Assembly: GCA_021835845.1 (NCBI GenBank) | Contig: JAKBJU010000005.1 | Span: forward strand, 36,505-100,504 | Source: Pseudomonadota bacterium | GTDB lineage: Bacteria > Pseudomonadota > Gammaproteobacteria > Burkholderiales > JABEVD01 | DNA: 64,000 nucleotides | Direction: 5' to 3' | Shown: positions 31,940-59,182 of the stretch, one piece after another | How the letters are laid out: every line of letters begins with the position of its first letter | Position numbering within the stretch: position 1 is the first letter of the stretch | Position numbers and translations under genes: made by a program | Notes under the pieces: generated by a model | What the model was told of the DNA's origin: nothing | Database searches by the model: none | What the model saw: the letters and a program-made list of their open reading frames with translations, nothing else

Positions 31940-32133
31940 CGTGCTTTCCTTGATGGGGAATATTTCGTAGCACCCGCTTTTAACTATCATTATCATTATC
32001 GTTTTGCAATTGGTGGTGAGGCATAAGGCCGCATGCCTTGCTGGTGGGGTGATCGGTGTAGGCTGAATTTCGAATGGTCAAATTCAATGGATATCATTTT
32101 ATGACTTGCTTTAATACTCTTAGGACGGGAAAC

Positions 32134-32742: not shown

Positions 32743-32805
32743 GGGTTTGCGGTACCAATCGCGGACGTATTTCCATCCAAAAATTAGCTATGGGAAGATT
32801 TGGTT

Positions 32806-35022
32806 ATGAGTGATAGTGGCATTAATCGCAGGGATTTTCTGAAAGTGCTTGGGCTGGGCGGAAGCTCCCTCGCGCTCACGGGATGCGGAAACACAGACAT
32901 TCGGTCAGGTGACGAGGTCATTATGCCGAACGTTCACCCCGAAGATTTTGTGGTGCCGGGTCTTAGCGTTTTCTATGCATCAACCTGCACTCAATGTGGC
33001 TCTGCATGCGGTGTCATGGGGCGCGTCCGCGAAGGGCGTGTGCTCAAGATGGAAGGCAATCCCGAGTCGAAGATCAGCGGTGGGAAAATTTGCGGGCTGG
33101 GACAGGCGGCAGTCCAGGTTCAGTATAACCCCGATCGCTTGACCCAGCCGATGATGAAAGTGGGGAGTAGTCTTCAGCCTGTCAGCTGGGACAAGGCGAT
33201 GGCAATGCTTGAAGAGAAGACGGGGCCCAAGAGCGGCATCAATGGCGATGAATTTGCATTCGTGACTGGCGCCATGAGCGGCCACCTCAAAGTCCTGGCG
33301 CAGAACTACCTGGATAGCCTGGGTTCCAAGAATCATTTTGTTTACGAGGCGCTTTCCCCTGCAGTCGGTTTTGCTGCGAACAAGCAAGTTTATGGCGTTG
33401 ACATGCCTAGATTGCGTTTCGACAAGGCAAAGCTGGTCGTCTCCTTCGGAAGCGATTTTCTCGGAACCGGTGCATCCCCCGTTCATTTCGCTGCCGAATA
33501 TGCCAAATTCAGGAAGGCGCCGCGTGGAACGCTGATCCAGATCGAACCCAAAATGACCATGACTGGCGCGAATGCCGATCGCTGGATCCCGATCATCCCC
33601 GGGACGGAAGGCGTGTTTGCGCTGGGTGTGGCCAATCAGCTTCTCAAGCACGGCGATTTTTCCAAAACCGTATCTGTGGATATAGTCAACCTCGTTGGCA
33701 AGTACGATCCAGACACAGTCAGCGGCATTACGGGTGTGAGCTCGGATTTGATTGGGCATTTGGCGGGGTTGCTTTGGGAGAAGTCACCGAGTCTCGTTAT
33801 TTCTGGCGCATCCGTCGAAGGACATGTTCATGGCGTTCAGAATGCGTCAGCGATCCAGATTCTCAATAGAATACTGGGCAATGTGGGCAAAACTGTTGAT
33901 GGTCAAGCGCAATCGCCTTTCCCGCAACTCGCGCCTGCAACAGGAAGCTTCGCATCCTTGAAGGCGATGAATGATGGAATGGGCGCTGGCACATACAAGG
34001 CTGTCTTTATCTACGGCGCAAATCCAGTATTCACAACACCCAGTTTTATGGGATTTAGGGATAACCTCAGAAAAGTGCCTTTCAAGGTGGCTTTTGTCAA
34101 CGCGATCGACGAAACCGCAGAAGAATGCGATCTCGTGTTGCCCATCTACACTGCAGTCGAGGATTTTGGCTCGCATATCGCCTGGTATCAGCCAGAGGGG
34201 GTCGAGATCACCATGCAGCAGCCTCTCATGGAAAAGCTTTATTCGGATACCCGCTCCATGGGCGATATCATGCTCGACCTCGTCAAGCAGCGCCGTGCCG
34301 ACGAATACAAAAACTGGCCAGATTTCCGCTCCTATCTGAAAACTGCGGTTGTCAACATCAAGCCCGCAGTCAAATACACGGATACTGACGAGCATTTCTG
34401 GTACGACACTCTGAGTCGTGGCGTGATTCATGTCGATGCGCCGCAACAGCAGATCGCGGAGAGCTTTTCAACAGAAATGCTTGACCTTCCGACGACGATA
34501 AATTCACCCGATCCAAAGTTTCCGTTCTATCTGATTCCATCCGAACGGCATTATTTCAGGGATGGACGTCATGCCAACTGCGGATGGCTGCAGGAATCGC
34601 CGGATCCGCTGACCACCGTGGTTTGGGATTCGTGGGCTGAAATTCACCCCAAAACCGCGGAGAGCATGGGTATCAAGGAAGGGGATTATCTCGAGATTTC
34701 TTCCCAGAATGGTACGCTGAAGGTAAAAGCCTATCTCTTCCCGGGCATACATCCTGACGCGATTTCGATTCCGCTTGGGCAGGGGCACGAATCGCTCGGG
34801 CGTTTTGCCAAGGGAGTCGGGGTGAATCCTTTCAGGATTCTGAATCCGGTTTTCGAGAAGGATACAGGGGAACTCGCCATGTACGGCACGCGGGTTTCGG
34901 TGAAGAAAACGGCAGAATCCGAAATTGTTGTCAAGGACGAAGGTCCTGTCAGTACGCAAATGGGGCGCAAACTGGTTGTGACGTTACCTGCTGACGTCGC
35001 TCAGCTTTCCAAGGAGATTTAA
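32806..35022 (+). CDS. actB1: ACIII ActB1: Tat-exported molybdopterin-oxidoreductase-fold subunit
   Basis: MSDSGINRRDFLKVLG (twin-Arg). N-terminal FeS motif CTQCGSACGV..ICGLG. 738 aa with MopB-like layout. Confidence 0.85.
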   Translation: MSDSGINRRDFLKVLGLGGSSLALTGCGNTDIRSGDEVIMPNVHPEDFVVPGLSVFYASTCTQCGSACGVMGRVREGRVLKMEGNPESKISGGKICGLGQAAVQVQYNPDRLTQPMMKVGSSLQPVSWDKAMAMLEEKTGPKSGINGDEFAFVTGAMSGHLKVLAQNYLDSLGSKNHFVYEALSPAVGFAANKQVYGVDMPRLRFDKAKLVVSFGSDFLGTGASPVHFAAEYAKFRKAPRGTLIQIEPKMTMTGANADRWIPIIPGTEGVFALGVANQLLKHGDFSKTVSVDIVNLVGKYDPDTVSGITGVSSDLIGHLAGLLWEKSPSLVISGASVEGHVHGVQNASAIQILNRILGNVGKTVDGQAQSPFPQLAPATGSFASLKAMNDGMGAGTYKAVFIYGANPVFTTPSFMGFRDNLRKVPFKVAFVNAIDETAEECDLVLPIYTAVEDFGSHIAWYQPEGVEITMQQPLMEKLYSDTRSMGDIMLDLVKQRRADEYKNWPDFRSYLKTAVVNIKPAVKYTDTDEHFWYDTLSRGVIHVDAPQQQIAESFSTEMLDLPTTINSPDPKFPFYLIPSERHYFRDGRHANCGWLQESPDPLTTVVWDSWAEIHPKTAESMGIKEGDYLEISSQNGTLKVKAYLFPGIHPDAISIPLGQGHESLGRFAKGVGVNPFRILNPVFEKDTGELAMYGTRVSVKKTAESEIVVKDEGPVSTQMGRKLVVTLPADVAQLSKEI

Positions 35023-35024
35023 AA

Positions 35025-35873
35025 GTGTCGATTACGAATCTTTTGAACAACTGGTCTTTCTACAGGAAAAAGCGTCCTTATCAGGGGCAATACGATCTCA
35101 ATAGACAGTACAGCGAGTACAAGTGGGCAATGGCCCTGGATCTTGACATCTGCACGGGCTGTAATGCATGCACGACTGCCTGCTATGCAGAAAACAATCT
35201 TCCGGTGGTTGGCAAGGAGCGCTTCAAGCATGGACATGTGATGCACTGGATCAGGATTGAGCGCTACTGGGATGAGAAAATGGGCGAGTTTCCTGAGCAA
35301 GGCGCATCTTTCCTACCCATGATGTGCCAGCAATGCGAAGAGGCCCCTTGCGAGACTGTTTGTCCTGTCGGTGCAACCAGTCACACCAACGACGGCTTGA
35401 ATTCCCAGAATTATCATCGGTGTGTCGGTTCCCGGTACTGCTCGGTAAACTGCCCTTACAAGGTCAGATACTTCAATTTCTGGAATTATCCTTCTACTGC
35501 TTGGCCGGCACCTCTTCCGGATCAGCTTAACCCCGATGTGACAGTCCGCACCAAGGGAATTATGGAAAAGTGCACGTTCTGTGTCCAGAGACTGAATGAA
35601 GCCAAGAGCCGCGCCAGAACGGAATATCGCCTCGTCAGGGACGGAGAAGTCGTGCCTGCTTGCGTCCAGGCTTGCCCGACAAGCGCGATAACCTTTGGCA
35701 ATATAGTTGACCCGAAGTCGAAAGTTGCAATGATGTGGAAGAATCAGCAGGTCGATCTTTACAAAGACATGCAGGAAAAGGACAACTCGGTTCGTGGATA
35801 TAGGATATTGGAGGATTTAAGACCGTTCCCGTCAGTGATGTACTTGGAGCGAGTAAGGGATATGGAAGCATAG
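35025..35873 (+). CDS. actB2: ACIII ActB2: 4Fe-4S cluster subunit (PsrB/DmsB-like), encoded separately from B1
   Basis: CTGCNACTTAC, CQQCEEAPCETVCP, CVGSRYCSVNCP, CTFCVQR..ACVQACP. Confidence 0.88.
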   Translation: MSITNLLNNWSFYRKKRPYQGQYDLNRQYSEYKWAMALDLDICTGCNACTTACYAENNLPVVGKERFKHGHVMHWIRIERYWDEKMGEFPEQGASFLPMMCQQCEEAPCETVCPVGATSHTNDGLNSQNYHRCVGSRYCSVNCPYKVRYFNFWNYPSTAWPAPLPDQLNPDVTVRTKGIMEKCTFCVQRLNEAKSRARTEYRLVRDGEVVPACVQACPTSAITFGNIVDPKSKVAMMWKNQQVDLYKDMQEKDNSVRGYRILEDLRPFPSVMYLERVRDMEA

Positions 35874-35940
35874 GATTGATCTCACCTTAACTGCTTGTGT
35901 TCCTCTTATAGGTAATGTTTTTACTTCAAGGAATTTTGTA

Positions 35941-37398
35941 ATGGTCAATACATACGAAGAAACAGAAGTCGCCGTAGAGAAGCGATTTGTCCCGAAACCG
36001 CTTGACATAAATGCAGATATCGCATGGGCAAAAATCAATAAGGACATACTCCGCAGTTTGGAGCGTCCAAGGCCAATATTCTGGGTGATTTTCATTGCAT
36101 CGTTTGCCTTGTTCTTGGTTGGTGTCTCTTGCGAAGTTTATCAATATCAAACAGGCATGGGTGTAGCCAATCTGAATAACCCGCAGGTGTGGGGGCTTTA
36201 TATTGCGACATTCATCTGGTGGATTGGAATGGGGCACTCCGGAACGCTGCTTTCAGCCCTTCTGCATATCATGCATGCAGACTGGCGTAAGCCGATTTAC
36301 CGATATTCCGAAGCGATGACCACATTCACACTGCTGACTGCTGCGCTCTTCGTCATGGTTCACTTGGGCAGGATTTGGCAGTTCTACTACGTGGTGGCCT
36401 ACCCGAATGAAAGATGGACATGGCCTAACTTTCAGTCTCCCCTGGTCTGGGACGCAACCGCGATCGGAACCTACCTCACTTCGTCGCTCCTGTTCCTTTA
36501 CATCGGGATGATTCCGGATCTGGCTATTTGTCGTGACAATGCCATTGGAATCCGCAAGAAGTTGTATACCTTCATGTCGCTTGGCTGGATGGGGACCGAT
36601 CGGCAATGGGCCAACTTCCGCGTCACTTATTTGACTCTGGCCTGCTTTCTGATGCCCCTTGCTGTTTCCGTGCATTCCATCGTTTCGACCGATTTTGCTG
36701 CATCACAGCAACCCGGTTATCACATTACGTCCTTTCCTCCCTACTTCGTCGCAGGGGCTATATATTCAGGGCTGGCTGTGATTATTACTCTCTTCATTGT
36801 CCTTCGATATACGTTCCGATTCGAGGAATATATGACCATGCCGATTCTCGAAAAGCTCGCAAAATTAACTTTTGCAGCGGGAATGGTGTGGACTTACCTG
36901 AATCTCATCGAATATGCCACGACATGGTATGGCAATGACATGTACGCCAAGCAGGCCTTGATATACCGCGCTACAGGTCCGTTTGCTCCCGAGTGGTGGA
37001 TGATGAACTTCCTTGGGTCGGTGCTTCCTTTTGCACTCACCTTCAAAAGGGTAAGGGCGAGTATTCCTGTAATGCTTTTCATGTCTATCTTCATCAATTT
37101 CGGGATGTGGCTGGAACGCTGGATGATTATTTCCCCGACCTTGGCACACGGAATTTATCCCTGGACCTGGGACGACGATCAATGGCCAAGCTTTGTCCAA
37201 TGGGGAATTGTTGCCGGCAGCTTTGGCTGGTTCAACATGCTCTTCATGTTGTATTGCAAGATCTTTCCTTCAGTTTCAATGTATGAGGTAAAGGAAATGC
37301 TTCATGAGCGTCGATTCTTTAAGAGTACCAACGTAGCAACTGCTCGGGATTCCGCGATTAATCCAGATTTGGCAGTTGAGGGAGGTCTTGCATCATGA
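35941..37398 (+). CDS. actC: ACIII ActC: NrfD/PsrC-like quinol-interacting membrane subunit
   Basis: 485 aa, about 10 TM helices, with NrfD-like WGLYIATFIWWIGMGHSGTL. Confidence 0.85.
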   Translation: MVNTYEETEVAVEKRFVPKPLDINADIAWAKINKDILRSLERPRPIFWVIFIASFALFLVGVSCEVYQYQTGMGVANLNNPQVWGLYIATFIWWIGMGHSGTLLSALLHIMHADWRKPIYRYSEAMTTFTLLTAALFVMVHLGRIWQFYYVVAYPNERWTWPNFQSPLVWDATAIGTYLTSSLLFLYIGMIPDLAICRDNAIGIRKKLYTFMSLGWMGTDRQWANFRVTYLTLACFLMPLAVSVHSIVSTDFAASQQPGYHITSFPPYFVAGAIYSGLAVIITLFIVLRYTFRFEEYMTMPILEKLAKLTFAAGMVWTYLNLIEYATTWYGNDMYAKQALIYRATGPFAPEWWMMNFLGSVLPFALTFKRVRASIPVMLFMSIFINFGMWLERWMIISPTLAHGIYPWTWDDDQWPSFVQWGIVAGSFGWFNMLFMLYCKIFPSVSMYEVKEMLHERRFFKSTNVATARDSAINPDLAVEGGLAS

Positions 37399-46454: not shown

Positions 46455-46748
46455 ATGCGAATCCTGCTCCTGATTCTGCTCTCCCTGATCGCCCTGGTAC
46501 AATATTCGCTTTGGCTGGGCAAGGGAGGGTGGCTTCAGGTGCGGGATCTGGACAGGCAGATCAGGGCGCAGCAGCAAGCCAACCAGAAAATGCAGGAAAG
46601 AAACGCAGCGATCGATGCTGACGTGAAGGATCTCAAGCAGGGTTATGCCGCGATCGAAGAGCGCGCAAGGAGCAAGCTGGGCATGGTCAAGGACGACGAG
46701 ATCTTTTTCCAGGTGATCAAGTCTTCTCCCCAACAGAAGGAAAAATGA
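46455..46748 (+). CDS. ftsB: Cell division protein FtsB
   Basis: 97 aa. N-terminal TM helix plus coiled coil, ..AIEERARSKLGMVKDDEIFF. Confidence 0.88.
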   Translation: MRILLLILLSLIALVQYSLWLGKGGWLQVRDLDRQIRAQQQANQKMQERNAAIDADVKDLKQGYAAIEERARSKLGMVKDDEIFFQVIKSSPQQKEK

Positions 46749-47152
46749 TACCGATTTCCCTCCGGCCTTCGATCAGCCTCGCAGCCATCCTCGCGACAGC
46801 CCATCTTGGCGCGATTTCCCTGATTCTCGTGCTCCCAATTTCAGCCAGACTTCCCCTCGTCATGCTTCTCGCGTTCAGCATGGCTTATTCGATCCTGCGT
46901 TATGCCTTCATCAGGCTCCCCGACTCCATCGTTTCCCTGAAGCTTGAAGAAAAATCCTGCATGTTTTCCATGCGCGGCGGCAGCGAAAAGAGCTGCGTCT
47001 TTCATGGAAGCAGCTACGTTTCCCCTTATCTGACCGTCCTGAACCTGAAGGAGGAGGGGAAGCGACTGATGAAATCAGTAGTCATTCTGCCTGATGCCAT
47101 CGACAGGGAGGAGTTCAGGCAACTTCGCGTCTGGTTGCGCTGGAAAGTTTGA
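46745..47152 (+). CDS. YgfX/CptA-like inner-membrane protein (DUF1434-like)
   Basis: 135 aa, two N-terminal TM helices, C-terminal ..EEFRQLRVWLRW. Same size and layout as E. coli YgfX (from memory). Confidence 0.45.
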   Translation: MIPISLRPSISLAAILATAHLGAISLILVLPISARLPLVMLLAFSMAYSILRYAFIRLPDSIVSLKLEEKSCMFSMRGGSEKSCVFHGSSYVSPYLTVLNLKEEGKRLMKSVVILPDAIDREEFRQLRVWLRWKV

Positions 47153-47667: not shown

Positions 47668-48015
47668 TCAGTTTAGCGTGATTTCGCCTTCGATGTCTTC
47701 GGCTGCGTCGATGACAATGGAATGCAGGGTAACGTCAAACCACTTCCAGAAAAGTTTGAGTGTCCTGTCTGCCGGCCAGGTGTTCTCTTCCTCCGACCAT
47801 TCGGAAAGCTCGGCTTCGAAGATATTGCCGTAGATATGATCTATCGCGGCGAGCGCATCCTCGATCTCGTCGAAATCAGGAATGAGGTAGACCGTGGAAT
47901 CCGTCCTCAACTGCTCCAGGGTGATGTCGATTTCCGAGCCGGGCAGAGCCTTGATCCATTCCAGGAAAGGCTCCCGGGGCTTGACGATGGCGACGCTACG
48001 ATCAACGGCATACAT
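47668..48015 (-). CDS. Acidic hypothetical protein
   Basis: 115-aa ORF with no recognisable motif. Confidence 0.45.
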
Positions 48016-48148: not shown

Positions 48149-50185
48149 TCAGTAGCGCGAGTCGCTTGGCTTGCCGCCTTTGGGCCAATCATGGACCTTG
48201 GCCGGGAAATCGCGCCTTGGCATGTGGCTGAAATACTCGCCGACGTCCACCGCCTGCTGATCCGTCAGGCCGCCCTGGCCGATTGGAAAGGAAAAGGTGT
48301 TCGAGAGCGGCATGACATTCTTGGCAAATGCGGCTGCCGTGTAGGTCTTGGCAATCCCTGCGCCGATATTGTACGAGTCGTTGCCCCACAGCGGCGGGAA
48401 CAGATAGCTGCCATCGGCGCGCTTGATGCCTTCGCCCTGTTTTCCGTGGCAAACGGCGCAGGAATGATTATAGACTTCCTTGCCATTCGCCGCGTTCGGC
48501 ACGATGCTTTTGCTGATCTTGCCGACGCCGCGCCCGGGGATCTTCTGCTTCATCTGATAGCCATTTCGCATCCAGTCCATGTAGGCGATCATGGCGTTCA
48601 TTTCACTGGAGTTCTTGTCCAGCGGGTTGCCTGCCATCGAACGCAGCATGCAGCCATTGACGCGGTCCTTGAAGTCGATGATGCGTCCGGCACGGGGATT
48701 GTAGCTGGGAAACTGGGCCGCCACGCCGACATAAGGAGACGCAAGCGCGACTGTCCCGCCATTGATGTGGCAACTGTCGCAGTTCAGCCCATCGCCCACA
48801 TAGTTCGGCAACAATCGCTTGGTGTCGCGCATCAGGCGCATGCCGTAGATCAGCTGGCTTGCATTGGCGCTTTTCAGCATGTCTGCATAGCGCGGCGGAT
48901 TGAATTTCGGCGGCTCGGCCTTCTTCATTTCCAGCGCCTTCCTCATCTTGTGAATCTGCTCGGCAGTCACCGGGCTGCCCTTGTTGCCCCAATGGGTCCG
49001 GACAAAAGTCGCGATTTCCGCGACTTCCTGGTCATTCAGCACGGAATAGGAGGGCATAGCAAAGGCGTGCGGGGAGGAGGCGGTCAGAGGTGATGCAGAG
49101 CCAGTCAGCATGACGTGGATGAGGGATGCGGGATCCTTGGCCTGAATAGAGGTATTGCCGGCGAGCGGCGGGAAAAAGCGTGTCGCACCCTTGCCGTCCA
49201 TCTGATGGCAAGTTGCGCAGAATTGCACGTAACCGAGGCCGCCGCGGGTTGCATAGATCTCCTTGTTGGTTTGAGCGACATCCATCGACACGGCGTCCCG
49301 TCCCGGCACCTCATTCGGATTGGGAGAAAGCGAGTGGATGTACTCGCCGATCGCTGCGAGGTCCCCTTGGGTGAAATGCTGCGAGCTGAAATGGACCACT
49401 TCGGCCATGCCGCCGTAGGCTGTTCCGCGGCCATTTTCACCCGTCTTCAGGAACTGGGCGATTTCAGGACCGGTCCAGATACTGCGCAGATTGACGGCAC
49501 GCCAGTGCTCGACGTCCGCCCCGGCCAGAAACTCCTTGCCGTCGCTGCCCGAATCGCTCATGGCCTTTTCCTGGAAACCGATGCCGCGCGGGGTATGACA
49601 GGAGCCGCAGTGACCGAGCCCCTCTACAATATATGCGCCACGATTCCATTGCGGGGTGTGCGAGGCATCATAACGGAAGGGCTGGTTATCCAGGAACACC
49701 ATGTTCCAGCCTGCGAGCCCCAGGCGGATGTTGAAGGGAAACTTCATGTCATTGGGCTTGTTGGGCTGAGCAACCGGCTCGACGCCTTGCATGAGGTAGG
49801 CGTAAAGGGCTCTCATGTCGTTCTGGGCTATTTTGGCGAATGAAGGATAAGGCATGGCGGGATAAAGATTGTGGCCATCCTGTGCAACGCCGCGGCGCAT
49901 CGCGCGATCGAAATCCTCAAAAGTATAGGTGCCGATGCCATCTGTTTTGTCGGGCGTGATATTGGTGGAATGGATGACGCCGAACGGCGTTCTCATTTCC
50001 AGGCCCCCCGCCAGCGGCTTGCCGCCAGGCGCGGTATGGCAGGCGACGCAGTCGCCCAGATGAGCCAGATATTCGCCCTGCTTGACCAGATCATTGGGCG
50101 AAGGCGCTGCAGCCAGCGTGGAGCTTGCAACCATTGTTGCCAATGCGGCACCCAAAAATTTCAGCGAGGCTGTTCCCAACTTCAT
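48149..50185 (-). CDS. Five-haem periplasmic cytochrome c: ADH-type trihaem module + TsdA-like dihaem module
   Basis: Signal peptide. Haem sites CVACH, CGSCH, CATCH, CDSCH, CAVCH. The N-terminal part resembles dehydrogenase cytochrome subunits (STNITPD, LYPAMPYPSF, DMRALYAYL). The C-terminal part resembles TsdA/SoxA (FPPLWG.DSYNIGAG, QGGLTDQQA). Confidence 0.8.
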   Translation of the reverse strand: MKLGTASLKFLGAALATMVASSTLAAAPSPNDLVKQGEYLAHLGDCVACHTAPGGKPLAGGLEMRTPFGVIHSTNITPDKTDGIGTYTFEDFDRAMRRGVAQDGHNLYPAMPYPSFAKIAQNDMRALYAYLMQGVEPVAQPNKPNDMKFPFNIRLGLAGWNMVFLDNQPFRYDASHTPQWNRGAYIVEGLGHCGSCHTPRGIGFQEKAMSDSGSDGKEFLAGADVEHWRAVNLRSIWTGPEIAQFLKTGENGRGTAYGGMAEVVHFSSQHFTQGDLAAIGEYIHSLSPNPNEVPGRDAVSMDVAQTNKEIYATRGGLGYVQFCATCHQMDGKGATRFFPPLAGNTSIQAKDPASLIHVMLTGSASPLTASSPHAFAMPSYSVLNDQEVAEIATFVRTHWGNKGSPVTAEQIHKMRKALEMKKAEPPKFNPPRYADMLKSANASQLIYGMRLMRDTKRLLPNYVGDGLNCDSCHINGGTVALASPYVGVAAQFPSYNPRAGRIIDFKDRVNGCMLRSMAGNPLDKNSSEMNAMIAYMDWMRNGYQMKQKIPGRGVGKISKSIVPNAANGKEVYNHSCAVCHGKQGEGIKRADGSYLFPPLWGNDSYNIGAGIAKTYTAAAFAKNVMPLSNTFSFPIGQGGLTDQQAVDVGEYFSHMPRRDFPAKVHDWPKGGKPSDSRY

Positions 50186-50314
50186 GTATTCACTCCATCT
50201 TGTTTCGACCCAACAGGCCTCAAATTATGCAAAAAGAGCTCGGATTCGAGCCATTTCAATGGGACGGGATACCGAGATTCGATCCCGAGAGATATCGTTC
50301 AACCGAACATGCCC

Positions 50315-50337
50315 GGCCGCTCTGGTCGAGAGCGGCC
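50315..50337. other. Perfect 9-bp stem hairpin (GGCCGCTCT-N5-AGAGCGGCC) between the SBP gene and the cytochrome gene
   Basis: Read directly from the sequence. No U-tract on either strand. Confidence 0.5.
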
Positions 50338-50346
50338 GAAGCTTCA

Positions 50347-51294
50347 TTACGGGCGATACGGCTTGAAGCCGTATTGTTCGAAAATCGCCAGCGCCTTGGA
50401 GGATTTCAGGAATTCCACCCAGGCTTTTGCCGCTTCAGGATTGGGCGCATCCTTGAGCACCCCTGCCGCATAGATTGCGGTCGAATTATGCTCGGGCGCA
50501 ATCTTCACGAACGAGATGGGGTTCCCAGCATGCTTTTCCTGGAAAACGGCTTCCGAGCCCCATGTCACGCCGGCAACTGCTTTTCCTTGCATCAGGAACA
50601 TCGGACTCTGGCGGTGATGGATGTGGGTAAGGATGGTTTCTCCGTTCTTCACTTTCGTTTCATAAACGGCTTTCACCAGATCGTCTCCACCAGCCTTCTT
50701 CAGGGCAGCCTTGATTTGCCGCGCGATGCCTTCGAAAGCGGGATTGGGCATGACCAGCCTGACGCCGGGTTTGCCGAGATCCTTCAGCGAGGTAATGTGG
50801 CCTGGATTGCCCTTCGGTACCATGATGGCGAGATCATTGGTCGCATAAGGCTCGACCGCTTTCACATAGCCCTTCTCAACCATCTGCTTGACGCGCTTCA
50901 TGCCTGCGGCATAAACATCCGCCTTCACCGTCCAGGTCATGTTGCCGACCGTGATGGTGCCGCCTTTTTCAATCTGGGTGGCAAGCAAACCGGGGGGGAT
51001 GGTTTCGTAGTAAATCTTGCCCTTGTATTCAGGATGTTCCTTTTCGAATTCGGCCACCAGCGGCGCCATGGCGAAATAATAGTTTCCGCCGACGAAAACT
51101 GACAGCTTCGCATCCATGGGATTGCCGTGAAAATCCGGCAGGTTGTCGACTTCCGGGACGGTGAATTCCAGACCTCTTTCAGTGACCGGGTTGTTTCTTC
51201 CTTCGCTCCATGGCGGGTAAACATCCGAGACGGCCTGCGCCGTCGCCAGGAGGCATCCCAATCCCATGAGCGATGAAATCAGCCTTTTGTTCAT
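50347..51294 (-). CDS. Orphan periplasmic oxyanion-binding protein (ModA-like, no permease or ATPase nearby)
   Basis: The ATG at 51294 has GAGGGA 7 nt upstream. Signal peptide MNKRLISSLMGLGCLLATAQA. ModA-like blocks: TNDLAIMVPKGNP..LKDLGKPGVRLVMPNP..AGVTWGSEA..AIYAAGV..FEQYGF. Confidence 0.7.
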   Translation of the reverse strand: MNKRLISSLMGLGCLLATAQAVSDVYPPWSEGRNNPVTERGLEFTVPEVDNLPDFHGNPMDAKLSVFVGGNYYFAMAPLVAEFEKEHPEYKGKIYYETIPPGLLATQIEKGGTITVGNMTWTVKADVYAAGMKRVKQMVEKGYVKAVEPYATNDLAIMVPKGNPGHITSLKDLGKPGVRLVMPNPAFEGIARQIKAALKKAGGDDLVKAVYETKVKNGETILTHIHHRQSPMFLMQGKAVAGVTWGSEAVFQEKHAGNPISFVKIAPEHNSTAIYAAGVLKDAPNPEAAKAWVEFLKSSKALAIFEQYGFKPYRP

Positions 51295-51305
51295 GTGGTT
51301 ATCCC

Positions 51306-52091
51306 TCACTTTGCATACTGGAAGCCATGCACGCCGAGTTCCGGCAAGGTGGCCACGATGCCTGGAGTGAGAATCACGCCCGGGATCAGGTGGTTGGTGA
51401 ATTCGGCAACCATTTGCGGCACACTGAGTTTGTCAGGGTTGACACCCTTCTTGTTCAGCATGTGCGAAATCTCGAAAATCGCATTGTGGCAGGCCAGAAA
51501 GACCGCACCCCTTGCCTGGAGGGAGGCTATGGAATTATCCGCAGGTGAAAATACGCCTTCCTCGTCCTCGAAGTTTTTCGGGTCGGCGTGCGCTGCCGCA
51601 GGCACTTTCAGGAAGGTGTTTTCCTTGAATTTGTCCCCGGTCAGCTTGGAAAGCTGGTACTTGTCCCAGAGATATTGATCGTAGAGCGCCAGATGAGCGG
51701 GGCCATGGGTCGCCGAAACGCACAGGAAGTCGGGATGCTTGAATGACCATATCTGGGCATTCATTGAATTTCTCATGAGATTGAGCCAGGGGCCCGAGAT
51801 GTCCGTATTGTCCCAAACCTGCTTGACCTTGCCCTTGTACTTCATGAGGATGGTCAGGGCTTCATGATCCCATTCTTCTTCCTTGGTCAGGATCATGGGC
51901 ACTTCCTTGAAGTCGCGGCGGCGAGGCGCCTTTGCGAGAGCCTTCGTCAGTTCCTTCAGCGTCTTCGCGCCATCCGGTTCCAAAGAAGAAAGAGGGGCTT
52001 CCGCTGCCTGGGCAATGCCGCTTCCCAAAGCTACACCTGCGAGGCCGGTTTTTGCCACGATGCCCAACATATCTCGACGCGCCATATCCAT
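51306..52091 (-). CDS. Tat-exported protein of unknown function with DsrE/COG1416-like motifs
   Basis: MDMARRDMLGIVAKTGLAGVALG (twin-Arg signal). VSATHGPAHLALY and GAVFLACHNAI resemble the two conserved DsrE-like blocks (low-confidence memory match). Confidence 0.55.
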   Translation of the reverse strand: MDMARRDMLGIVAKTGLAGVALGSGIAQAAEAPLSSLEPDGAKTLKELTKALAKAPRRRDFKEVPMILTKEEEWDHEALTILMKYKGKVKQVWDNTDISGPWLNLMRNSMNAQIWSFKHPDFLCVSATHGPAHLALYDQYLWDKYQLSKLTGDKFKENTFLKVPAAAHADPKNFEDEEGVFSPADNSIASLQARGAVFLACHNAIFEISHMLNKKGVNPDKLSVPQMVAEFTNHLIPGVILTPGIVATLPELGVHGFQYAK

Positions 52092-52277: not shown

Positions 52278-53231
52278 ATGCGTATCACGTTACGCCAGTT
52301 GCAGATTTTCGTCGCCGTCGCGCGCACCTCGAGCACAACCGAGGCGGGAAAGAGCCTGCCCCTTTCACAGTCTGCAACCAGCGCGGCCATCAACGACATA
52401 GAAAGCCTGCTCAACACCCAGTTGTTCGATCGAGTCGGAAAGCGCCTCGTGCTCAATGACAACGGACGACTGCTCCTGCCCAATGCGCTTGCCCTGATCG
52501 AGGGGGCAATCGATCTCGAACAGCAGTTTTCGACTGCCCGGACCGGGATGGTTTCGCAACTTCGTTTGGGGGCGAGCACGACCATTGGCAACTACATCCT
52601 GCCCGGCCTGCTTGCCGGCTGCCGCAGGGAGCAATTCGGAGAATGCGAAGCGGCGCCTAGCATGCGAGTGGACATTGCCAATAGTTCAAAAATCGCCGAA
52701 GCAGTCGCGAATTACGAGATAGATGCCGGCTTTATAGAAGGACACTGCCATGTGCCGAATCTTGAAGTCATTCCCTGGATTCAGGATGAGCTGCTGATCG
52801 TCGCCTCCCCGACCCATGCCATAGCCAGGAAGGGCAAGGTTGATTTCGATACGCTTCAGCAGGTGCAATGGCTGATGCGAGAATCCGGGTCGGGCACGCG
52901 CGAGACCGTGGAATACGAATTGCTGAGGCATCTGAGCCATCTGAACATCGGAATGGAATTCGGCGGAGCGGAAGCGATCAAGCGTGCAACCTCGGAGGGC
53001 CTCGGAATAAGCTGCCTGTCGCGATGGGCCGTTGCGGATTATCTGGAAACCGGGCAATTGATCATCCTGGAAACCGAATTGCCCAAGCTGACCCGGAAAT
53101 TCCACATCATCCTGCACAAGCAAAAATATCTTTCTGACAATCTCAAGCATTTTCTGAACCATTGTGCTGGAAGCGAGATATTCACGTCGTCGCTCATGCC
53201 AAGCGAAGCAATCTGCTTGTCGCCGGCATGA
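52278..53231 (+). CDS. LysR-family transcriptional regulator
   Basis: MRITLRQLQIFVAVARTSSTTEAGKSLPLSQSATSAAINDIE..LFDRVGKR. Confidence 0.9.
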   Translation: MRITLRQLQIFVAVARTSSTTEAGKSLPLSQSATSAAINDIESLLNTQLFDRVGKRLVLNDNGRLLLPNALALIEGAIDLEQQFSTARTGMVSQLRLGASTTIGNYILPGLLAGCRREQFGECEAAPSMRVDIANSSKIAEAVANYEIDAGFIEGHCHVPNLEVIPWIQDELLIVASPTHAIARKGKVDFDTLQQVQWLMRESGSGTRETVEYELLRHLSHLNIGMEFGGAEAIKRATSEGLGISCLSRWAVADYLETGQLIILETELPKLTRKFHIILHKQKYLSDNLKHFLNHCAGSEIFTSSLMPSEAICLSPA

Positions 53232-53332: not shown

Positions 53333-56300
53333 TCAACTGGAGGCTGAGCCTCTTTCCAGAGACCAGCGAGTATCGTCGACTAGCCATTGCAGTAGCGCAT
53401 CGAAAGGCATCGGGTGCCCGATATAAAAACCCTGCCCCTGATCGCACTGATTCTCGACCAGAAATGAGAGCTGCTCTTCGGTTTCTATGCCTTCCGCAAT
53501 GACGGGGATCTTCAGGTTATGCCCCATGGCAATGATCGCGGTGATCAAGGCCGCATTCCCCGCGTCCCCAGTCACATCCCGGACGAAGGACTGGTCGATC
53601 TTGAGCTGGCTTATCGGGTAGCGTTTCAGGTAACTCAGGCTTGAATACCCGGTTCCGAAATCGTCGATGGCGATTCCCACCCCAAGCACATGCAGCGCCT
53701 CCAGAGCGGTGGCGACATCGCTTCTTTCATCCATCAGCACGCTTTCGGTGATCTCCAACTCCAGCTGAGCACTTTCCAGGCTAGCCTGCCCGAGAGCATT
53801 TCTAACCAGCATGACCAGATTGCCGTTCATGAATTGCCGCGGCGATATATTGACTGCGACCTTGAGCGCTACGCCCAGCAGCTTTTCCATCCTTTTTGCA
53901 TCACGACAGGCCGCCTCCAGCACCCATTGGCCGATCCGCAAGATGAGCCCTGTTTCTTCAGCCAGGGGAATGAAAGTGGAAGGCGGCACATGCTGATCGC
54001 TCCCGTTGTGCATGCGCAGCAAAGCCTCGACGCCCAGTACGGTCTTCGACTTCAAATCCACTTTCGGCTGATAGAACAAGGAAAAGCCGTCGCTTTCAAT
54101 GGCAAGATGAAGCTCCCTTTCAATGCTCAACCGGTTCGCCGCCCCCCTGTCCATTTCCCGCGAATACATCTTGTATCCGTTGCGCCCATGCTCCTTGACC
54201 CAGTACATCGCCACATCGGCACATCGCAGAAGCTCGTTCATGTCGTGGCCGTCGCGGGGACAAATGCTGAATCCGATGCTCGACGTAATGTGTACTTCCT
54301 GAATGCCCACATTGATCGGCTGCATCAATGCCTTGTGGATGCGCCCGGCGACGAGCGACACTCCAGTCGCGTCGGTTTCGCTCAGAAGCAGGACGAATTC
54401 GTCTCCTCCCATCCTGGCAAGCGTGTCGGTTGGCCGCAGGCAAGAAGAAACACGTTCCACGAACTCCTTGAGCAGCCTGTCTCCGATGTGATGACCCATC
54501 GAGTCGTTGATATGCTTGAAACGGTCGATGTCCATCATGCCCAATGCAAACGGGATATTGCTTCTGTGCTGCTGCTCGATCGCCACCATTATCCTGTCAT
54601 CAAGCAGGGCACGATTGGGCAGTCCGGTCAGTACATCGTGCAGGGCAATGTGCCTGATGTATTCCTTGGCCCGCATTTCCTCGGAAATGTCGTAGGCAAT
54701 GCCGATGAACCCCTGGATTACATCGTTCTCATCGCGCAATGCGCTCACCGAAAGATGCACGGGAAAGCGTGACCCGTCCTTGCGAATGTAGGTCCATTCA
54801 TGTTCTTCCTGGAAAGTTTTCCTGGCCTTTGCGACGAACACCTCGAAATCCGGCGGCACCGCACAGCCGAGCTCCTGGCTCAATGCCGCAGCGCGCTCCC
54901 TGATTTCATCGGCATCGTGAAATAGCAGCGGATTGGCTTTGCCGACCACCTCATTCGCGTCATACCAGAGCATGCGCTCTGCAGCCTTGTTGAAAGTGAG
55001 TATGGTGCCGTCGATGTCGGTGGAAATGATCGAGTAGGCTGCATTTTCAACGATCGCGGTGCGCAGGCGGTTCGAGTATTCGAGCTGCTGGAACAGGCGT
55101 TTTTCCTGCGTGATGTTCCTGAAGGTGACGGCAATACCACCGGGCATGGCCACCGCCTGGCGCTGATACCATTGGGTTGCGCCATCGCTGGCCAGGGAAA
55201 ATTCGTTGGTCAGCGGATTTCCCGTGAGAACCACTTTCCTGTATTGATCGAAAATGTCCCGCTGTTCCGGAAAGAGTTCCAGCAACGAATGTCCAACCAG
55301 GCCATCGGCTGGCAGTCTGGCCATTTCTGCCGCATGAGAATTGGCGTAGATGTAGCGGAAATCGACAATATCTCCGCCCTCGCTTTTCATGCTCTCACCA
55401 ATCACGAACCCATCCGGGCTGCTTTCCCTTGCCGCCTCGAAGCGGGCTCTCGCAATTCTTTCAGAAGCATGGGCATTTGCTAGATCCTGGGTCAGCGGGC
55501 TGACCCGAAGACGGGTGATCCATAGTCCCAGGGCGACCAGAATGGCGATCAAGGGAAGCGCAATCAAGAGTTCCCGTTTGACCGGGGCGTAAACTTCTGC
55601 GACATCCATTTTCAGAACCAGACCCAGCCCTGTATTACCCACGGGGCCGTAGGCTGACAGGACATTTCGTCCCCGGTAATCGATCGACGAGAAAATGCCG
55701 CTTTCGCCGGCGAGTGCATGCATCATCGGCAGCGGTTTCCCATTGAAAGTGTCCGGAATCACATACATGGAAACCTGTTCACGCTGCGGAAAGCATAGCA
55801 GTCTGCTCCGATCGAGGCGACTGCACATCGGCATGGTGCCGGTATTTCCCCAGCGGCTGGATTCGTCGAAAATCCTGTTCACATCGCGAAGTTCCTGTTC
55901 GAACACCATGAAACCTTCCGGGACGCCGCGAATCGCTTGTTTTACGGGGATCAGTACGCGCAGGTAGTAGCCATTATCCCAGGCGAGATAAACTTCTCCT
56001 TTCCGGTTAAGACGGGAGAAGGCGGTTTTATCCGAAACAAGACGCCCCACAACAACTCTGCTCCGGGTGCCATCCTCCAGGCCGATTCCGGAGAACCCGT
56101 ATGCAAGCAAGCTGGAAATCGGGATATCCCGCGCCATGGTCGATTTGGCTTTGCCAAACCAGAGAGATACCAAGGATTTGAGTTCGGGGTCCTGACTCGC
56201 TACTGTCGTGCGCTCTATGCGGTCGTCGAGCGCGGCTTCGATCTGCGAGCGTCTCGCACTCAAGCTTTGCTGCATATCCAGTGTCGCCTGATTCAGCATG

Positions 56301-57043
56301 GCTTTCTCTAGAAACCAGATCCCGGTCAGGCCGACGGCGACAGAGGTGAGGATGACCACGAAGACCGTGGTGTGGTAAATCTGCCTGGCTCTTTGTTCAG
56401 CTGCTATAGCGAAGGCGCTTTCTTCGCAGCGAATCGCAAGACACAGCAGGCCGGCACCTAGCAGGGTCATGCCGACGGCGGTGGGCAGGGACATCCATAT
56501 CAGTCCCGTCTCGATATACAGCGTTTCGAAAAGATACTGCAGCTTGAGCCAGTATCCGAAGATAACGGTCAGTCCCATGGCGAGCAGCAGGGCAGCCATT
56601 GTGCCGGCAAGCATACGCATCTTCCGGTCAGCAGCCCGCCAAACGGACAGCATCCCGATTCCGAATCCCAAGAATCCCGTCACCGTCTGCGGCGACATGT
56701 GGCCGACGCTCTGGAACTGCGCTCCCCAAACCAGCGCCAGAAAATCGATGCCGGCGAATTGCCGATGGGCAGCAATTTCAAGTCCCATTGCCCCGGCAAG
56801 CAGCATAGTCAGCCAGACAAGCATGCGCGCTGCTAAGGATTCCCGGCTTCCGAGCAGAGACAGCCCGCTCAAGACGAAACAGAGTGCCGTGCCAGGCACC
56901 ATGGGAATCCAGTCGGGGTCGATGCGCGTCAGCAGGGGAATGCCGAATGCCCAACCAGCGAGAACCGTGCTGCCGATCAGAAAGGTGAATATGCCGGCAA
57001 GGAAAACGATTTTATGGCGATCAGTTCGCTGGAAGGCTGGCAT
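53333..57043 (-). CDS. Multi-domain c-di-GMP protein: polytopic N-terminal sensor, extracytoplasmic domain, 2 PAS, GGDEF, EAL
   Basis: 1236 aa. About 8 TM helices, then a roughly 250-aa loop between two further TM helices. GGDEF: RPTDTLARMGGDEF. EAL: EALLRM..DDFGTGYSSLSYL..QGFY. Confidence 0.88.
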   Translation of the reverse strand: MPAFQRTDRHKIVFLAGIFTFLIGSTVLAGWAFGIPLLTRIDPDWIPMVPGTALCFVLSGLSLLGSRESLAARMLVWLTMLLAGAMGLEIAAHRQFAGIDFLALVWGAQFQSVGHMSPQTVTGFLGFGIGMLSVWRAADRKMRMLAGTMAALLLAMGLTVIFGYWLKLQYLFETLYIETGLIWMSLPTAVGMTLLGAGLLCLAIRCEESAFAIAAEQRARQIYHTTVFVVILTSVAVGLTGIWFLEKAMLNQATLDMQQSLSARRSQIEAALDDRIERTTVASQDPELKSLVSLWFGKAKSTMARDIPISSLLAYGFSGIGLEDGTRSRVVVGRLVSDKTAFSRLNRKGEVYLAWDNGYYLRVLIPVKQAIRGVPEGFMVFEQELRDVNRIFDESSRWGNTGTMPMCSRLDRSRLLCFPQREQVSMYVIPDTFNGKPLPMMHALAGESGIFSSIDYRGRNVLSAYGPVGNTGLGLVLKMDVAEVYAPVKRELLIALPLIAILVALGLWITRLRVSPLTQDLANAHASERIARARFEAARESSPDGFVIGESMKSEGGDIVDFRYIYANSHAAEMARLPADGLVGHSLLELFPEQRDIFDQYRKVVLTGNPLTNEFSLASDGATQWYQRQAVAMPGGIAVTFRNITQEKRLFQQLEYSNRLRTAIVENAAYSIISTDIDGTILTFNKAAERMLWYDANEVVGKANPLLFHDADEIRERAAALSQELGCAVPPDFEVFVAKARKTFQEEHEWTYIRKDGSRFPVHLSVSALRDENDVIQGFIGIAYDISEEMRAKEYIRHIALHDVLTGLPNRALLDDRIMVAIEQQHRSNIPFALGMMDIDRFKHINDSMGHHIGDRLLKEFVERVSSCLRPTDTLARMGGDEFVLLLSETDATGVSLVAGRIHKALMQPINVGIQEVHITSSIGFSICPRDGHDMNELLRCADVAMYWVKEHGRNGYKMYSREMDRGAANRLSIERELHLAIESDGFSLFYQPKVDLKSKTVLGVEALLRMHNGSDQHVPPSTFIPLAEETGLILRIGQWVLEAACRDAKRMEKLLGVALKVAVNISPRQFMNGNLVMLVRNALGQASLESAQLELEITESVLMDERSDVATALEALHVLGVGIAIDDFGTGYSSLSYLKRYPISQLKIDQSFVRDVTGDAGNAALITAIIAMGHNLKIPVIAEGIETEEQLSFLVENQCDQGQGFYIGHPMPFDALLQWLVDDTRWSLERGSASS

Positions 57044-57162
57044 AACAGGCTTTATCGTGCGCTATTACCCCAACAGTAGTCCAATCGCCCTGATTTGCCA
57101 GATGAAGGTGATTCGAGAATGGCTGGCAAGTCCAGCGCGGCGTTGTTCTTCCCGGCCGAAGC

Positions 57163-58188
57163 TCAGGTGCCGTATATTGTCGTCCTGTTTCTTCCCCGGG
57201 TTTTCGAGGCGTACAGCGCCTTGTCGGCTTGATTGAGCAATTGGTTGATGTCTCCATTCACGGTGAGACTGGCAACGCCGATGGAAACGGTGACAGCGCC
57301 TATGGATTCCTGCGAATCGATGCGGCGGATCTTTCCGATTTCTATACTCTTCCTGATATGCTCGGCAACTGCATATGCGCCGGCAGCTGGCGTCTCGGGT
57401 AGCAGTACGGCGAATTCCTCCCCGCCCAGCCTTGCCACGGAATCCTGCCCCTTGACCTTGGATTTCAGCATTTCCGCCACAGCCCTGATCACCTTGTCGC
57501 CAACCAGATGCCCATAGGTGTCGTTGATTTTTTTGAAATGGTCGATATCAATCATCAGGAGACATATTTCTTTGCCCGAAGAAGCGCTTTCGTCCAGAAT
57601 CCGCGAAGTGGCCTTTTCAAATCCGCGGCGGTTGAGAATTCCGGTCAAGGGGTCGATCATGGCTTCTCCCTTGGCAGACTCAAGCTCCCGATGAAGTTCT
57701 TCGACTTCCTGCTTGCTGTGCTCCAGCTGGTTCTGCAGGTTCAGCACGCTGCCGCGCATGTGTTCGGTATCCTCGACCATCTCTCCGATCAGTTTCCCCA
57801 GGGCGGATTCGTCGAGGTTCTGCTTGAGCTTTTCCCCATAGGATTGAAGATTGTCCCCGAACCCCATGGCGCGCCTGTCTGTTTCTTCGGTGAATCCCGC
57901 AAGCTTGCCCAGGATTTTCTGGAGATCCTGCCTGAGAAGCTTGTGGATATCCAGGTTGCATTCCGAAACATATTCCGCATAGAGTTTCTCGATTGCCTCA
58001 TCGTCGAGCCTGGTTTCCGAATCGAGATACTGCCCAAGCGCATCTGACAAGGCCGGATTGATCCCGGCAAGATGCTCGAACCACACTGCGTAGGCCCATG
58101 GGGTGAAGGAGGAGGGATGAGCGGCCATTTTCTGGATGACCAGCCTCAGAATTTCCCCGCTTGCATCGCGCCCCTGTTCGTATCTCAT
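57163..58188 (-). CDS. Diguanylate cyclase with an uncharacterised N-terminal domain and coiled coil
   Basis: Start MRYEQGRD at 58188. DPLTGILNRRG..IDHFKKINDTYGH..ARLGGEEF. No RxxD I-site (KGQD instead). Confidence 0.85.
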   Translation of the reverse strand: MRYEQGRDASGEILRLVIQKMAAHPSSFTPWAYAVWFEHLAGINPALSDALGQYLDSETRLDDEAIEKLYAEYVSECNLDIHKLLRQDLQKILGKLAGFTEETDRRAMGFGDNLQSYGEKLKQNLDESALGKLIGEMVEDTEHMRGSVLNLQNQLEHSKQEVEELHRELESAKGEAMIDPLTGILNRRGFEKATSRILDESASSGKEICLLMIDIDHFKKINDTYGHLVGDKVIRAVAEMLKSKVKGQDSVARLGGEEFAVLLPETPAAGAYAVAEHIRKSIEIGKIRRIDSQESIGAVTVSIGVASLTVNGDINQLLNQADKALYASKTRGRNRTTIYGT

Positions 58189-58309
58189 CGTTCGCAATCT
58201 TCTCTTTTGATTGAAAAGGCATTTTAGCAGAAGGTTTGGATCAAGTCTTTCCCTGAGACGCCACAAACGCGATGGGGTATCATTCAGCCCAATACTTGAG
58301 GAGAGAAGC

Positions 58310-59182
58310 ATGGATTCAAAACTGGAAGCAACATTTGGCGAAGTGGATTTTGTGGAAGGCCAGAACGGATTCGAACTGGTCGAGGTGAAAAATTCTGCAG
58401 GAAGCGCCACCATCGCCCTGCAGGGCGCGCAGCTGCTTTCCTGGACGCCGGCCGGCGAAAAACCGGTAGTCTGGCTCTCGAAAAATGCGAAATACATGCA
58501 GGGGAAATCGGTGAGGGGCGGCATTCCCATTTGCTGGCCCTGGTTCGGGCCGCATCCGGAAGAATCTTCCTATCCCGCTCACGGTTTCGCCAGGAACCTC
58601 GTCTGGGAAGTGGGTGGAACGAAAAGCCTGACGGATGCGACTCAGGTCGTTCTGCGCCTGGTTCCGAACGAGGCATCCTGGCCTTACCCTTCCGAGCTTG
58701 AATGCCGGATCAAGGTGGGCCAGACATTGGAAATGGAATTGATCACCCAGAATACAGGACTTGAGCCTTTTACACTGGGATGCGCCCTGCATACCTATTT
58801 CGAGGTGGGCGACGTAAGAAAAATCGAAATCCTGGGGCTGGAGGAAGCCGCCTATATCGACAAGGTGAATGGCGGTAAAAATCGGCAATCCGGCCCGGTG
58901 ACAGTGAATTCCGAGGTCGACAGGATCTATCTCGACACAGCGTCGGATTGTCTGATTCGTGACCCGATTTACAACCGCGTCATCCGGGTGGAAAAAGAAG
59001 GGAGCCGCTCGACCGTGGTGTGGAATCCCTGGGTGGACAAGGCTGACAAAATGGGTGACCTCGGAGATGACGGCTACCTGAACATGCTGTGCGTCGAGAG
59101 CTGCAATGCGGCAGATGATGTCGCCATCGTCCCTCCGGGAAAATCGCACCGGCTCTCGGCCAGGTATTCAGTCCTCGCATGA
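58310..59182 (+). CDS. D-hexose-6-phosphate mutarotase (aldose 1-epimerase family, YeaD-like)
   Basis: ATG at 58310 after GAGGAGAG. GGIPICWPWFGPH..YPAHGFARN. Confidence 0.8.
   Translation: MDSKLEATFGEVDFVEGQNGFELVEVKNSAGSATIALQGAQLLSWTPAGEKPVVWLSKNAKYMQGKSVRGGIPICWPWFGPHPEESSYPAHGFARNLVWEVGGTKSLTDATQVVLRLVPNEASWPYPSELECRIKVGQTLEMELITQNTGLEPFTLGCALHTYFEVGDVRKIEILGLEEAAYIDKVNGGKNRQSGPVTVNSEVDRIYLDTASDCLIRDPIYNRVIRVEKEGSRSTVVWNPWVDKADKMGDLGDDGYLNMLCVESCNAADDVAIVPPGKSHRLSARYSVLA

Follow-up and report, generated by a model that had tools for sequence, protein, structure and literature searches.

TsdA is the best-understood of the enzymes that interconvert thiosulfate and tetrathionate, and the electron partners known for it are TsdB, the high-potential iron-sulfur protein HiPIP and soluble cytochromes. 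Trihaem c-type cytochromes are known as subunits of alcohol (ADH), glucose (GDH) and fructose dehydrogenases (FDH), which are membrane-bound, quinone-reducing enzymes. In Allochromatium vinosum TsdA (AvTsdA), Arg109, Arg119 and Ser127 of the precursor, which correspond to Arg82, Arg92 and Ser100 in the chain numbering used here, hold thiosulfate and tune the catalytic Cys, on which a Cys S-thiosulfonate intermediate is formed (PMC4423706). The catalytic haem is ligated by Cys96 in AvTsdA and by the equivalent Cys138 in Campylobacter jejuni TsdA (CjTsdA); the Met ligand of the electron-transfer haem (Met209 in A. vinosum, Met255 in C. jejuni) is strictly conserved in TsdA, and the position of AvTsdA Lys208, occupied by Asn in C. 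jejuni, varies among TsdAs and affects directionality (PMC5146829). Here we describe a protein encoded on a 64,000-nt stretch of a Burkholderiales contig (JAKBJU010000005.1; called the window below, with all coordinates given as window positions), in which a trihaem cytochrome c of the dehydrogenase type is joined to a C-terminal TsdA. Judged by its sequence, this five-haem fusion cytochrome is probably a periplasmic TsdA-type thiosulfate dehydrogenase/tetrathionate reductase in which the trihaem module replaces TsdB as the electron unit.

The fusion gene occupies positions 48149..50185 of the minus strand, with the stop codon at 48149-48151, and its ATG start codon is preceded by a GGAG 9 nt upstream. 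The encoded protein of 678 amino acids contains CxxCH motifs at residues 46, 193, 323, 469 and 576. A preliminary description of the locus, which had left the strand unstated, is borne out with respect to the open reading frame (ORF) and its five motifs, and all the peptides that it quoted are found in the translation. It had also proposed Sec export, and the N-terminus (MKLGTASLKFLGAALATMVASSTLAA/A; aa 1-26, 50108..50185, minus strand) indeed looks like a Sec-type signal peptide in a hydropathy scan, in which it is the only hydrophobic segment of the protein; this region is variable among homologues. Ten of the 11 Cys residues belong to the five haem motifs, and the sole remaining one, Cys512, lies 39 residues past His473, the first haem His of the TsdA module, exactly where a Cys had been noticed. 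That the ORF arose by chance or as an artefact is ruled out by its homologues, since the protein collection holds a protein of the same sequence (P0001) along with over 120 full-length clusters (formed at 90% identity) of 660-700 aa with 56-86% identity.

The C-terminal part, from about residue 440 to 678, had been described as TsdA-like, and this assignment stands. Residues 431-660 align end to end with AvTsdA (4wq7/4v2k; E=2e-45, 39% identity), and PF21342 (SoxA/TsdA) is matched at residues 467-543 with 48.8 bits against a cut-off of 27; on these grounds the TsdA module is placed at aa 441-678 (48152..48865, minus strand). In the alignment, AvTsdA His53/Cys96 correspond to His473/Cys512, so that haem 4 (C469xxCH473) is paired with Cys512, and His164/Met209 correspond to His580/Met625, which pairs haem 5 (C576xxCH580) with Met625. 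The active-site residues Arg82, Arg92 and Ser100 are found as Arg498, Arg508 and Ser516. Around the Cys ligand AvTsdA reads RIGDCFERS and the fusion RVNGCMLRS, and Cys512, encoded at 48650..48652 (minus strand) and aligned with AvTsdA Cys96, is predicted to be the catalytic haem-ligating Cys. Cys512, Arg498, Arg508, Ser516, Met625 and all five CxxCH motifs are invariant in 120 homologues. Of the ligands proposed for comparison with AvTsdA, the Cys and the Met are thus present, whereas the Lys of the Lys/Met switch is not: Lys208 is aligned with Val624 (and Arg197 with Lys613), and ahead of the haem-5 Met most homologues have Asn and none has Lys. Since this position is variable across TsdAs, the lost Lys does not exclude TsdA membership (PMC5146829). 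The preliminary description had envisaged that this half might lack the Cys ligand and lie closer to non-catalytic dihaem cytochromes; Cys512 is present, and neither expectation is borne out. By every sequence-level test that was applied, the fusion is a member of the TsdA family, and its C-terminal module is a complete TsdA, apparently able to catalyse the reaction.

The whole fusion protein passes no NCBIfam model. SoxA, which was also considered as an identity, was rejected, as TIGR04484 is matched with 57.9 bits (E=8e-16) and its cut-off is 110. The haem-4 domain does share with SoxAX the SoxA/TsdA superfamily of Cys-ligated cytochromes (PF21342; TIGR04484), but the fusion has the TsdA-specific Ser516, and no sox genes are found near it in the window.

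The N-terminal module (aa 30-418; 48932..50098, minus strand) resembles the trihaem cytochrome c subunits of membrane-bound dehydrogenases, as had been suggested for residues of about 30-430. The alignment of residues 11-416 extends through all three domains of the solved subunits of Gluconobacter quinone-dependent alcohol dehydrogenase (8gy2_B, residues 20-435 of 478; E=2e-106), FAD-glucose dehydrogenase (8hdd_B; E=2e-94), fructose dehydrogenase (7w2j_C; E=1e-79) and aldehyde dehydrogenase (8gy3_A; E=4e-60). In a PDB sequence search the N-terminal part reached E=8e-106 and the C-terminal part E=1.5e-44, and every solved trihaem relative found belongs to a quinone-reducing membrane enzyme; a Pfam search returned Cytochrom_C (E=2e-32), whose hits are among four stretches listed for the protein as a whole. 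The three haem motifs (C46xxCH, C193xxCH and C323xxCH) and the conserved Met residues are in register with those of Gluconobacter oxydans ADH subunit II (8gy2_B), and Met111, Met260 and Met377, which are invariant in the 120 homologues, are likely to be the distal haem ligands. The alignment with 8gy2_B stops at residue 435 of 478, and the C-terminal tail of AdhB (~43 residues, 436-478) is replaced in the fusion by a linker (aa 419-440, EMKKAEPPKFNPPRYADMLKSA; 48866..48931, minus strand), whose length and sequence vary across homologues, and the TsdA module. In the G. oxydans ADH, Burkholderia cepacia FAD-GDH (beta subunit) and FDH (subunit C) the trihaem protein is a subunit of its own, whereas here the catalytic partner, a haem enzyme in its own right, is fused C-terminally. 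The neighbours of the fusion gene in the window encode a solute-binding protein (SBP), a homologue of the thiosulfate dehydrogenase of Acidithiobacillus ferrooxidans (Af-Tsd), a LysR regulator, a glycine-zipper lipoprotein and a 115-aa ORF of no known family, with no gene for a catalytic subunit dependent on pyrroloquinoline quinone, FAD or Mo among them. Hence, the fusion is not a canonical dehydrogenase cytochrome subunit.

The closest described architecture is that of TsdBA of Marichromatium purpuratum (5lo9), in which an N-terminal electron-accepting cytochrome unit and a C-terminal TsdA are arranged in the same order. Fusion residues 425-656 match 5lo9 residues 241-474 (E=1e-30), more weakly than they match AvTsdA, and an identity with TsdBA was rejected because 5lo9 residues 1-240 give no match to the N-terminal part, where the ADH/GDH/FDH-type trihaem unit brings the number of haems to five as opposed to four in TsdBA. 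Compared with the stand-alone TsdA of A. vinosum and C. jejuni, the fusion has 430 extra N-terminal residues and three additional haems. When its TsdA part was scored against 1.84 billion cluster representatives, 163 relatives were retrieved at E<=1e-30, of which the best 150 were classified. Stand-alone dihaem proteins of 240-400 aa account for about 100 of these, some 10 are tetrahaem and TsdBA-like, and a single cluster (P0282, 693 aa) has the five-haem architecture. Others form a graded series. In P0284 and P0320 one cytochrome domain, similar to the third domain of the trihaem module, precedes TsdA, and in P0283 the second and third trihaem-type domains do so; all three proteins are full-length, carry their own signal peptides and keep the order of the five-haem fusion, with the ADH-type domain or domains before TsdA. 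An unfused pair is found in a metagenome-assembled genome (MAG) of the Rhodocyclaceae (L061, 7881-10122), where a 439-aa trihaem gene is followed by a tsdA ORF of at most 318 aa, most likely translated as ~300 aa from an internal Met; each of the two has a signal peptide of its own, and the pair adjoins a FixJ/TtrR-like regulator. From the one-, two- and three-domain fusions and this unfused pair we infer that this TsdA clade and the ADH-type cytochrome are true redox partners and were not joined by accident, and that the C-terminal (haem 3) domain of the trihaem module docks to TsdA. Haem 3c is also the point of electron entry from the catalytic subunit in fructose dehydrogenase. Further TsdA fusions were seen with a sulfatase, with a SoxB-like metallophosphoesterase/5'-nucleotidase and with an MCP-like N-terminus (P0303, P0340 and P0281), the last of which may be a chimeric assembly. 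As TsdA is visibly modular, the architecture will strike a specialist as plausible rather than shocking.

The fusion is a widespread and apparently uncharacterised variant of the TsdA family. A genome scan with one genome per GTDB species, of which the best 80 loci were listed and used for all counts of loci and contexts, contains the complete fusion in about 50 of these loci, each from the genome of its own species, in three proteobacterial classes and one Nitrospirae MAG. Among the Betaproteobacteria it occurs in Thiobacillus, Gallionella acididurans, Sulfuriferula, Rhodoferax, Zoogloea, Thauera, Oryzomicrobium, Massilia, Janthinobacterium, Cupriavidus basilensis, Ralstonia, Burkholderia, Paraburkholderia, Pandoraea, Comamonas and Acidovorax, among the Gammaproteobacteria in Pseudomonas putida, P. 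fragi, P. salomonii and P. rubra, and among the Alphaproteobacteria in Xanthobacter, Rhodopseudomonas, Azorhizobium, Phaeovulum and Pelagivirga. The closest of the loci listed, with 96% identity and an identical gene order, is from the MAG "Proteobacteria bacterium SKS1.bin68", and members of the protein cluster are labelled Burkholderiales. In databases the fusion goes by the names "c-type cytochrome", "cytochrome c" or "alcohol dehydrogenase cytochrome c subunit precursor", and the label "thiosulfate dehydrogenase" is used by IMG and in a few GenBank/UniRef entries. The preliminary description knew of no trihaem-TsdA fusion; with more than 120 clusters the protein is common in databases and cannot be called rare, but no characterisation of it was found in the literature searched, where searches for genome papers on Sulfuriferula, Ferrovum or Gallionella gave no account of the architecture either. 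Genome and metagenome surveys that use tsdA as a marker of the S4-intermediate (S4I) pathway do not distinguish the fusion (e.g. PMC11294248), and homology-based tsdA counts probably include it.

In the window, the fusion gene is the third gene of a cassette that begins with the gene for Af-Tsd (261 aa; 51306..52091, minus strand), followed by that for the SBP (320 aa; 50347..51309, minus strand); these two genes overlap by 4 nt and lie directly upstream of the fusion gene on the same strand. Af-Tsd is recognized by the equivalog NF052225, "thiosulfate dehydrogenase" (393 bits against a cut-off of 300), and is 63% identical to the ~25 kDa thiosulfate dehydrogenase of A. ferrooxidans (AFE_0042 type). 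It carries a Tat signal (RRDML) and a Cys residue, Cys201 in the motif FLACHN, that is invariant in 45 homologues. There is no solved structure and no Pfam family for this protein; its AlphaFold2 model has a pLDDT of 89 and finds its best Foldseek matches, weak ones with E=0.016-0.1, among DsrE/DsrF-like sulfurtransferases, so that a DsrE-like fold is a lead only. The SBP is an orphan periplasmic protein of the sulfate/molybdate type (SBP_bac_11; PF13531, E=1.6e-57), distantly matches the sulfate-binding proteins 1sbp and 6ddn, is 71% identical to the SBP of the A. ferrooxidans cluster and is accompanied by no transporter genes in this neighbourhood of the window. In another protein with its own signal peptide (P0384, 592 aa), an SBP_bac_11 domain 60% identical to the SBP of the window is fused to TsdA, which suggests that the binding protein works directly with TsdA.

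The third slot of the cassette can be filled in several ways. Af-Tsd and the SBP are followed by the fusion in the window, in L006, L007 (Gallionella acididurans) and L008, in L025 (Nitrospirae) and in L043 and L044 (Alphaproteobacteria), by tsdB-tsdA in Noviherbaspirillum and Ferrovum (L086, L088), and by DoxDA in A. ferrooxidans (L085), whose cassette has been described (PMC2754497; PMC6335251). A divergent gene for a LysR-type, YeiE-like regulator (52278..53231, plus strand; Pfam HTH_1 and LysR_substrate; NF040889/NF008095) is kept beside the cassette in L006, L007 and L008 and stands beside the fusion in Massilia (L004/L054); a 262-aa protein encoded upstream in Massilia was considered as an Af-Tsd homologue and rejected on comparison. 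At seven loci (L011, L012, L015, L033, L049, L051 and L061) from Rhodoferax, Zoogloea, Acidovorax, Thauera, Rhodocyclaceae and an unclassified Proteobacteria MAG, the fusion is adjoined by a TtrS-like kinase with a phosphonate-binding-type periplasmic sensor and a FixJ/TtrR-like regulator; the kinase matches NF040750 over its full length with 307 bits, below the TtrS cut-off of 750. Some genomes keep the fusion and tsdB-tsdA side by side: in Azospira oryzae PS (L001/L002, 8294-10018) the fusion gene is directly followed by a separate dihaem gene of the tsdB type and by a stand-alone tsdA, whose product shares 35% identity with the TsdA part of the fusion, and tsdB-tsdA is likewise found downstream in L015, L037, L049 and L055, and in Zoogloea, Paenirhodobacter and others.

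Based on the conserved residues, we propose that 2 thiosulfate would be interconverted with tetrathionate and 2 electrons at haem 4 (His473/Cys512), with a Cys512 S-thiosulfonate intermediate placed by Arg498, Arg508 and Ser516 in the way described for A. vinosum TsdA. The electrons would pass from haem 4 to haem 5 (His580/Met625), on to haem 3 and from there to haems 2 and 1, a path suggested by the domain order and the series of one-, two- and three-domain fusions. In this locus, the reaction would most likely be thiosulfate oxidation, as the first step of the S4-intermediate pathway. The final acceptor might be the membrane quinone pool, as the preliminary description had also suggested, reached through a peripheral membrane association of the trihaem module like that in ADH, GDH and FDH. 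Given the identity as a TsdA joined to a trihaem cytochrome, such a quinone coupling is plausible by analogy, its chances being only a little short of even, and it is the acceptor that we prefer because the trihaem relatives are quinone-linked, DoxDA shares the slot and an acidic pH favours the reaction. The tetrathionate/thiosulfate couple is pH-independent, whereas the quinone couple rises by ~60 mV per pH unit; as only the latter shifts with pH, quinone reduction would be favourable in an acidic periplasm, and the closest relatives of the cassette come from acid-mine-type organisms (Gallionella acididurans, Ferrovum and a mine drainage metagenome). If quinone is the acceptor, the fusion would be the haem-based counterpart of DoxDA (Acidianus; A. 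ferrooxidans AFE_0044), which takes the same position after Af-Tsd and the SBP (PMC2754497). The proposed overall reaction, from thiosulfate to tetrathionate with electrons to quinone, is alike; however, the two proteins have no sequence relationship, DoxDA being an integral membrane protein without haem c and the fusion a secreted multihaem protein with no predicted transmembrane helix. The reaction would be expected to be reversible, with quinol:tetrathionate reduction where tetrathionate is available. More tentatively, the fusion could be a single-polypeptide, haem-only thiosulfate:quinone oxidoreductase/quinol:tetrathionate reductase, a widespread functional analogue of DoxDA and TtrABC, and the electron output of a three-part periplasmic system in which a DsrE-like, Cys-based Tsd and a dedicated thiosulfate- or tetrathionate-binding protein deliver or exchange the thiosulfonate substrate.

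Several observations weigh against this proposal. With ubiquinone at ~+100 mV, thiosulfate oxidation is uphill by ~100 mV at neutral pH; the hydropathy scan found no membrane anchor, transmembrane or amphipathic, beyond the signal peptide of the fusion; the AdhB C-terminal tail has given way to linker and TsdA; and TsdB, which has no known quinone reduction and delivers its electrons to soluble carriers, occupies this slot in related cassettes. In addition, about 35 of 49 fusion loci, or some two thirds, have neither the Af-Tsd/SBP cassette nor a TtrS/TtrR-like system nor a downstream tsdB-tsdA, no paper describing or testing a trihaem-TsdA protein was found in the full-text literature searched, and an AlphaFold2 model of the whole fusion (from a 24-sequence alignment; pLDDT 63.6, pTM 0.62, haem-binding stretches below 50) is too poor to show how the domains or the haems are placed relative to one another. 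The missing anchor and tail, together with tsdB-tsdA after Af-Tsd and the SBP in Noviherbaspirillum and Ferrovum, are what would be expected of a soluble periplasmic thiosulfate dehydrogenase, in which the trihaem module substitutes for TsdB without quinone contact and feeds cytochrome c or HiPIP, and these carriers in turn a cbb3/aa3 oxidase or denitrification enzymes. The partner-then-TsdA order shared with M. purpuratum TsdBA fits this explanation as well, as does the preference, at neutral pH, for acceptors above the +198 mV of the tetrathionate/thiosulfate couple (PMC9562282). We regard it as possible, yet doubtful: all solved trihaem homologues are quinone-reducing subunits of membrane-bound dehydrogenases, the quinone reductase DoxDA fills the same slot too, and in the hydropathy scan the ten closest unfused trihaem homologues also have no hydrophobic anchor or transmembrane helix, so that its absence from the fusion is weak evidence if those proteins serve membrane-bound enzymes, as their similarity suggests.

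TsdA enzymes are bidirectional, and the direction of the reaction cannot be read from the sequence. The fusion could primarily be a respiratory quinol:tetrathionate reductase, an Mo-free alternative to TtrABC whose trihaem module oxidizes quinol at the membrane while TsdA reduces tetrathionate to thiosulfate. This reaction would run downhill, from ubiquinol at ~+100 mV to a couple at +198 mV (PMC9562282), the TtrS/TtrR-like regulators adjoin the fusion at seven loci of facultative anaerobes such as Thauera, Zoogloea, Rhodoferax and Acidovorax, and most homologues have Asn before the haem-5 Met, as does the tetrathionate-reducing CjTsdA (PMC5146829). However, the TtrS-like kinase, with 307 bits, falls far under the TtrS cut-off of 750. 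The inducer of this kinase is ambiguous as well, since there are relatives of TtrS, such as ThsS, that sense thiosulfate. In the window, moreover, the partners belong to an A. ferrooxidans-type thiosulfate-oxidation cassette and not to TtrSR, and a primary role in tetrathionate reduction, which is rather unlikely for the family as a whole, is less likely still in this locus. The same cassette raises the question of whether the fusion serves mainly as the electron acceptor of the neighbouring Af-Tsd, with the TsdA module as a docking or electron-entry site and not as a catalyst. Translational coupling links the Af-Tsd and SBP genes, which lie directly upstream, the third gene of the cassette always encodes a redox protein, and a dedicated partner is to be expected because the enzyme purified from A. 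ferrooxidans failed to reduce ubiquinone or horse cytochrome c (PMC6335251). We nonetheless consider this improbable, as the TsdA Cys, both Arg residues and the Ser are invariant in the 120 homologues, and as most fusion loci have no Af-Tsd, so that the fusion must be able to function on its own.

A trihaem partner, if true, would add a new route from TsdA chemistry to the respiratory chain, and this route might be direct at the quinone level and need neither the DoxDA membrane protein nor molybdenum enzymes. Because the fusion is found widely among environmental and cultivable Proteobacteria (Thiobacillus, Sulfuriferula, Thauera, Cupriavidus, Pseudomonas), the energy yield and direction of its reaction affect how tsdA surveys are interpreted. 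The conserved cassette also suggests which protein might physiologically accept the electrons of the A. ferrooxidans-type Tsd, a hypothesis that can be tested. The possible link to quinone, the interchange of DoxDA, TsdBA and the fusion, and the connection with the A. ferrooxidans-type enzyme make the protein a worthwhile experimental target.

Other features of the window may be noted. The 161-nt gap between the SBP and fusion genes contains, in the region 50237-50337 of the minus strand, a GC-rich hairpin (GGCCGCTCT...AGAGCGGCC, ~50315-50337) and a stem with a T run (50252-50237) that weakly resembles a terminator, and both could attenuate read-through into the fusion gene; a scan of 47.6-52.4 kb for promoters and terminators gave a number of sites not above that in shuffled sequence. 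The 115-aa ORF directly downstream of the fusion gene (47668-48015, minus strand) is acidic, has no family match and is conserved only in L006, the 96%-identical relative, and a CptA/YgfX-like membrane toxin-family ORF follows ftsB at 46745-47152 (plus strand). About 11 kb from the fusion, at 32062-37398 (plus strand), a second ORF with five CxxCH motifs (32062-32742) is followed by QrcB-like molybdopterin-type, QrcC-like FeS and NrfD-like membrane subunit genes; this looks like a Qrc or alternative-complex-III-like quinone-interacting module, and the stretch around it has a lower G+C content (0.48-0.52 as opposed to ~0.57). Beyond the LysR gene, at 53333-58530 (minus strand), lie genes of cyclic-di-GMP signalling, which encode a 1236-aa PAS-PAS-GGDEF-EAL protein and a 455-aa GGDEF protein.

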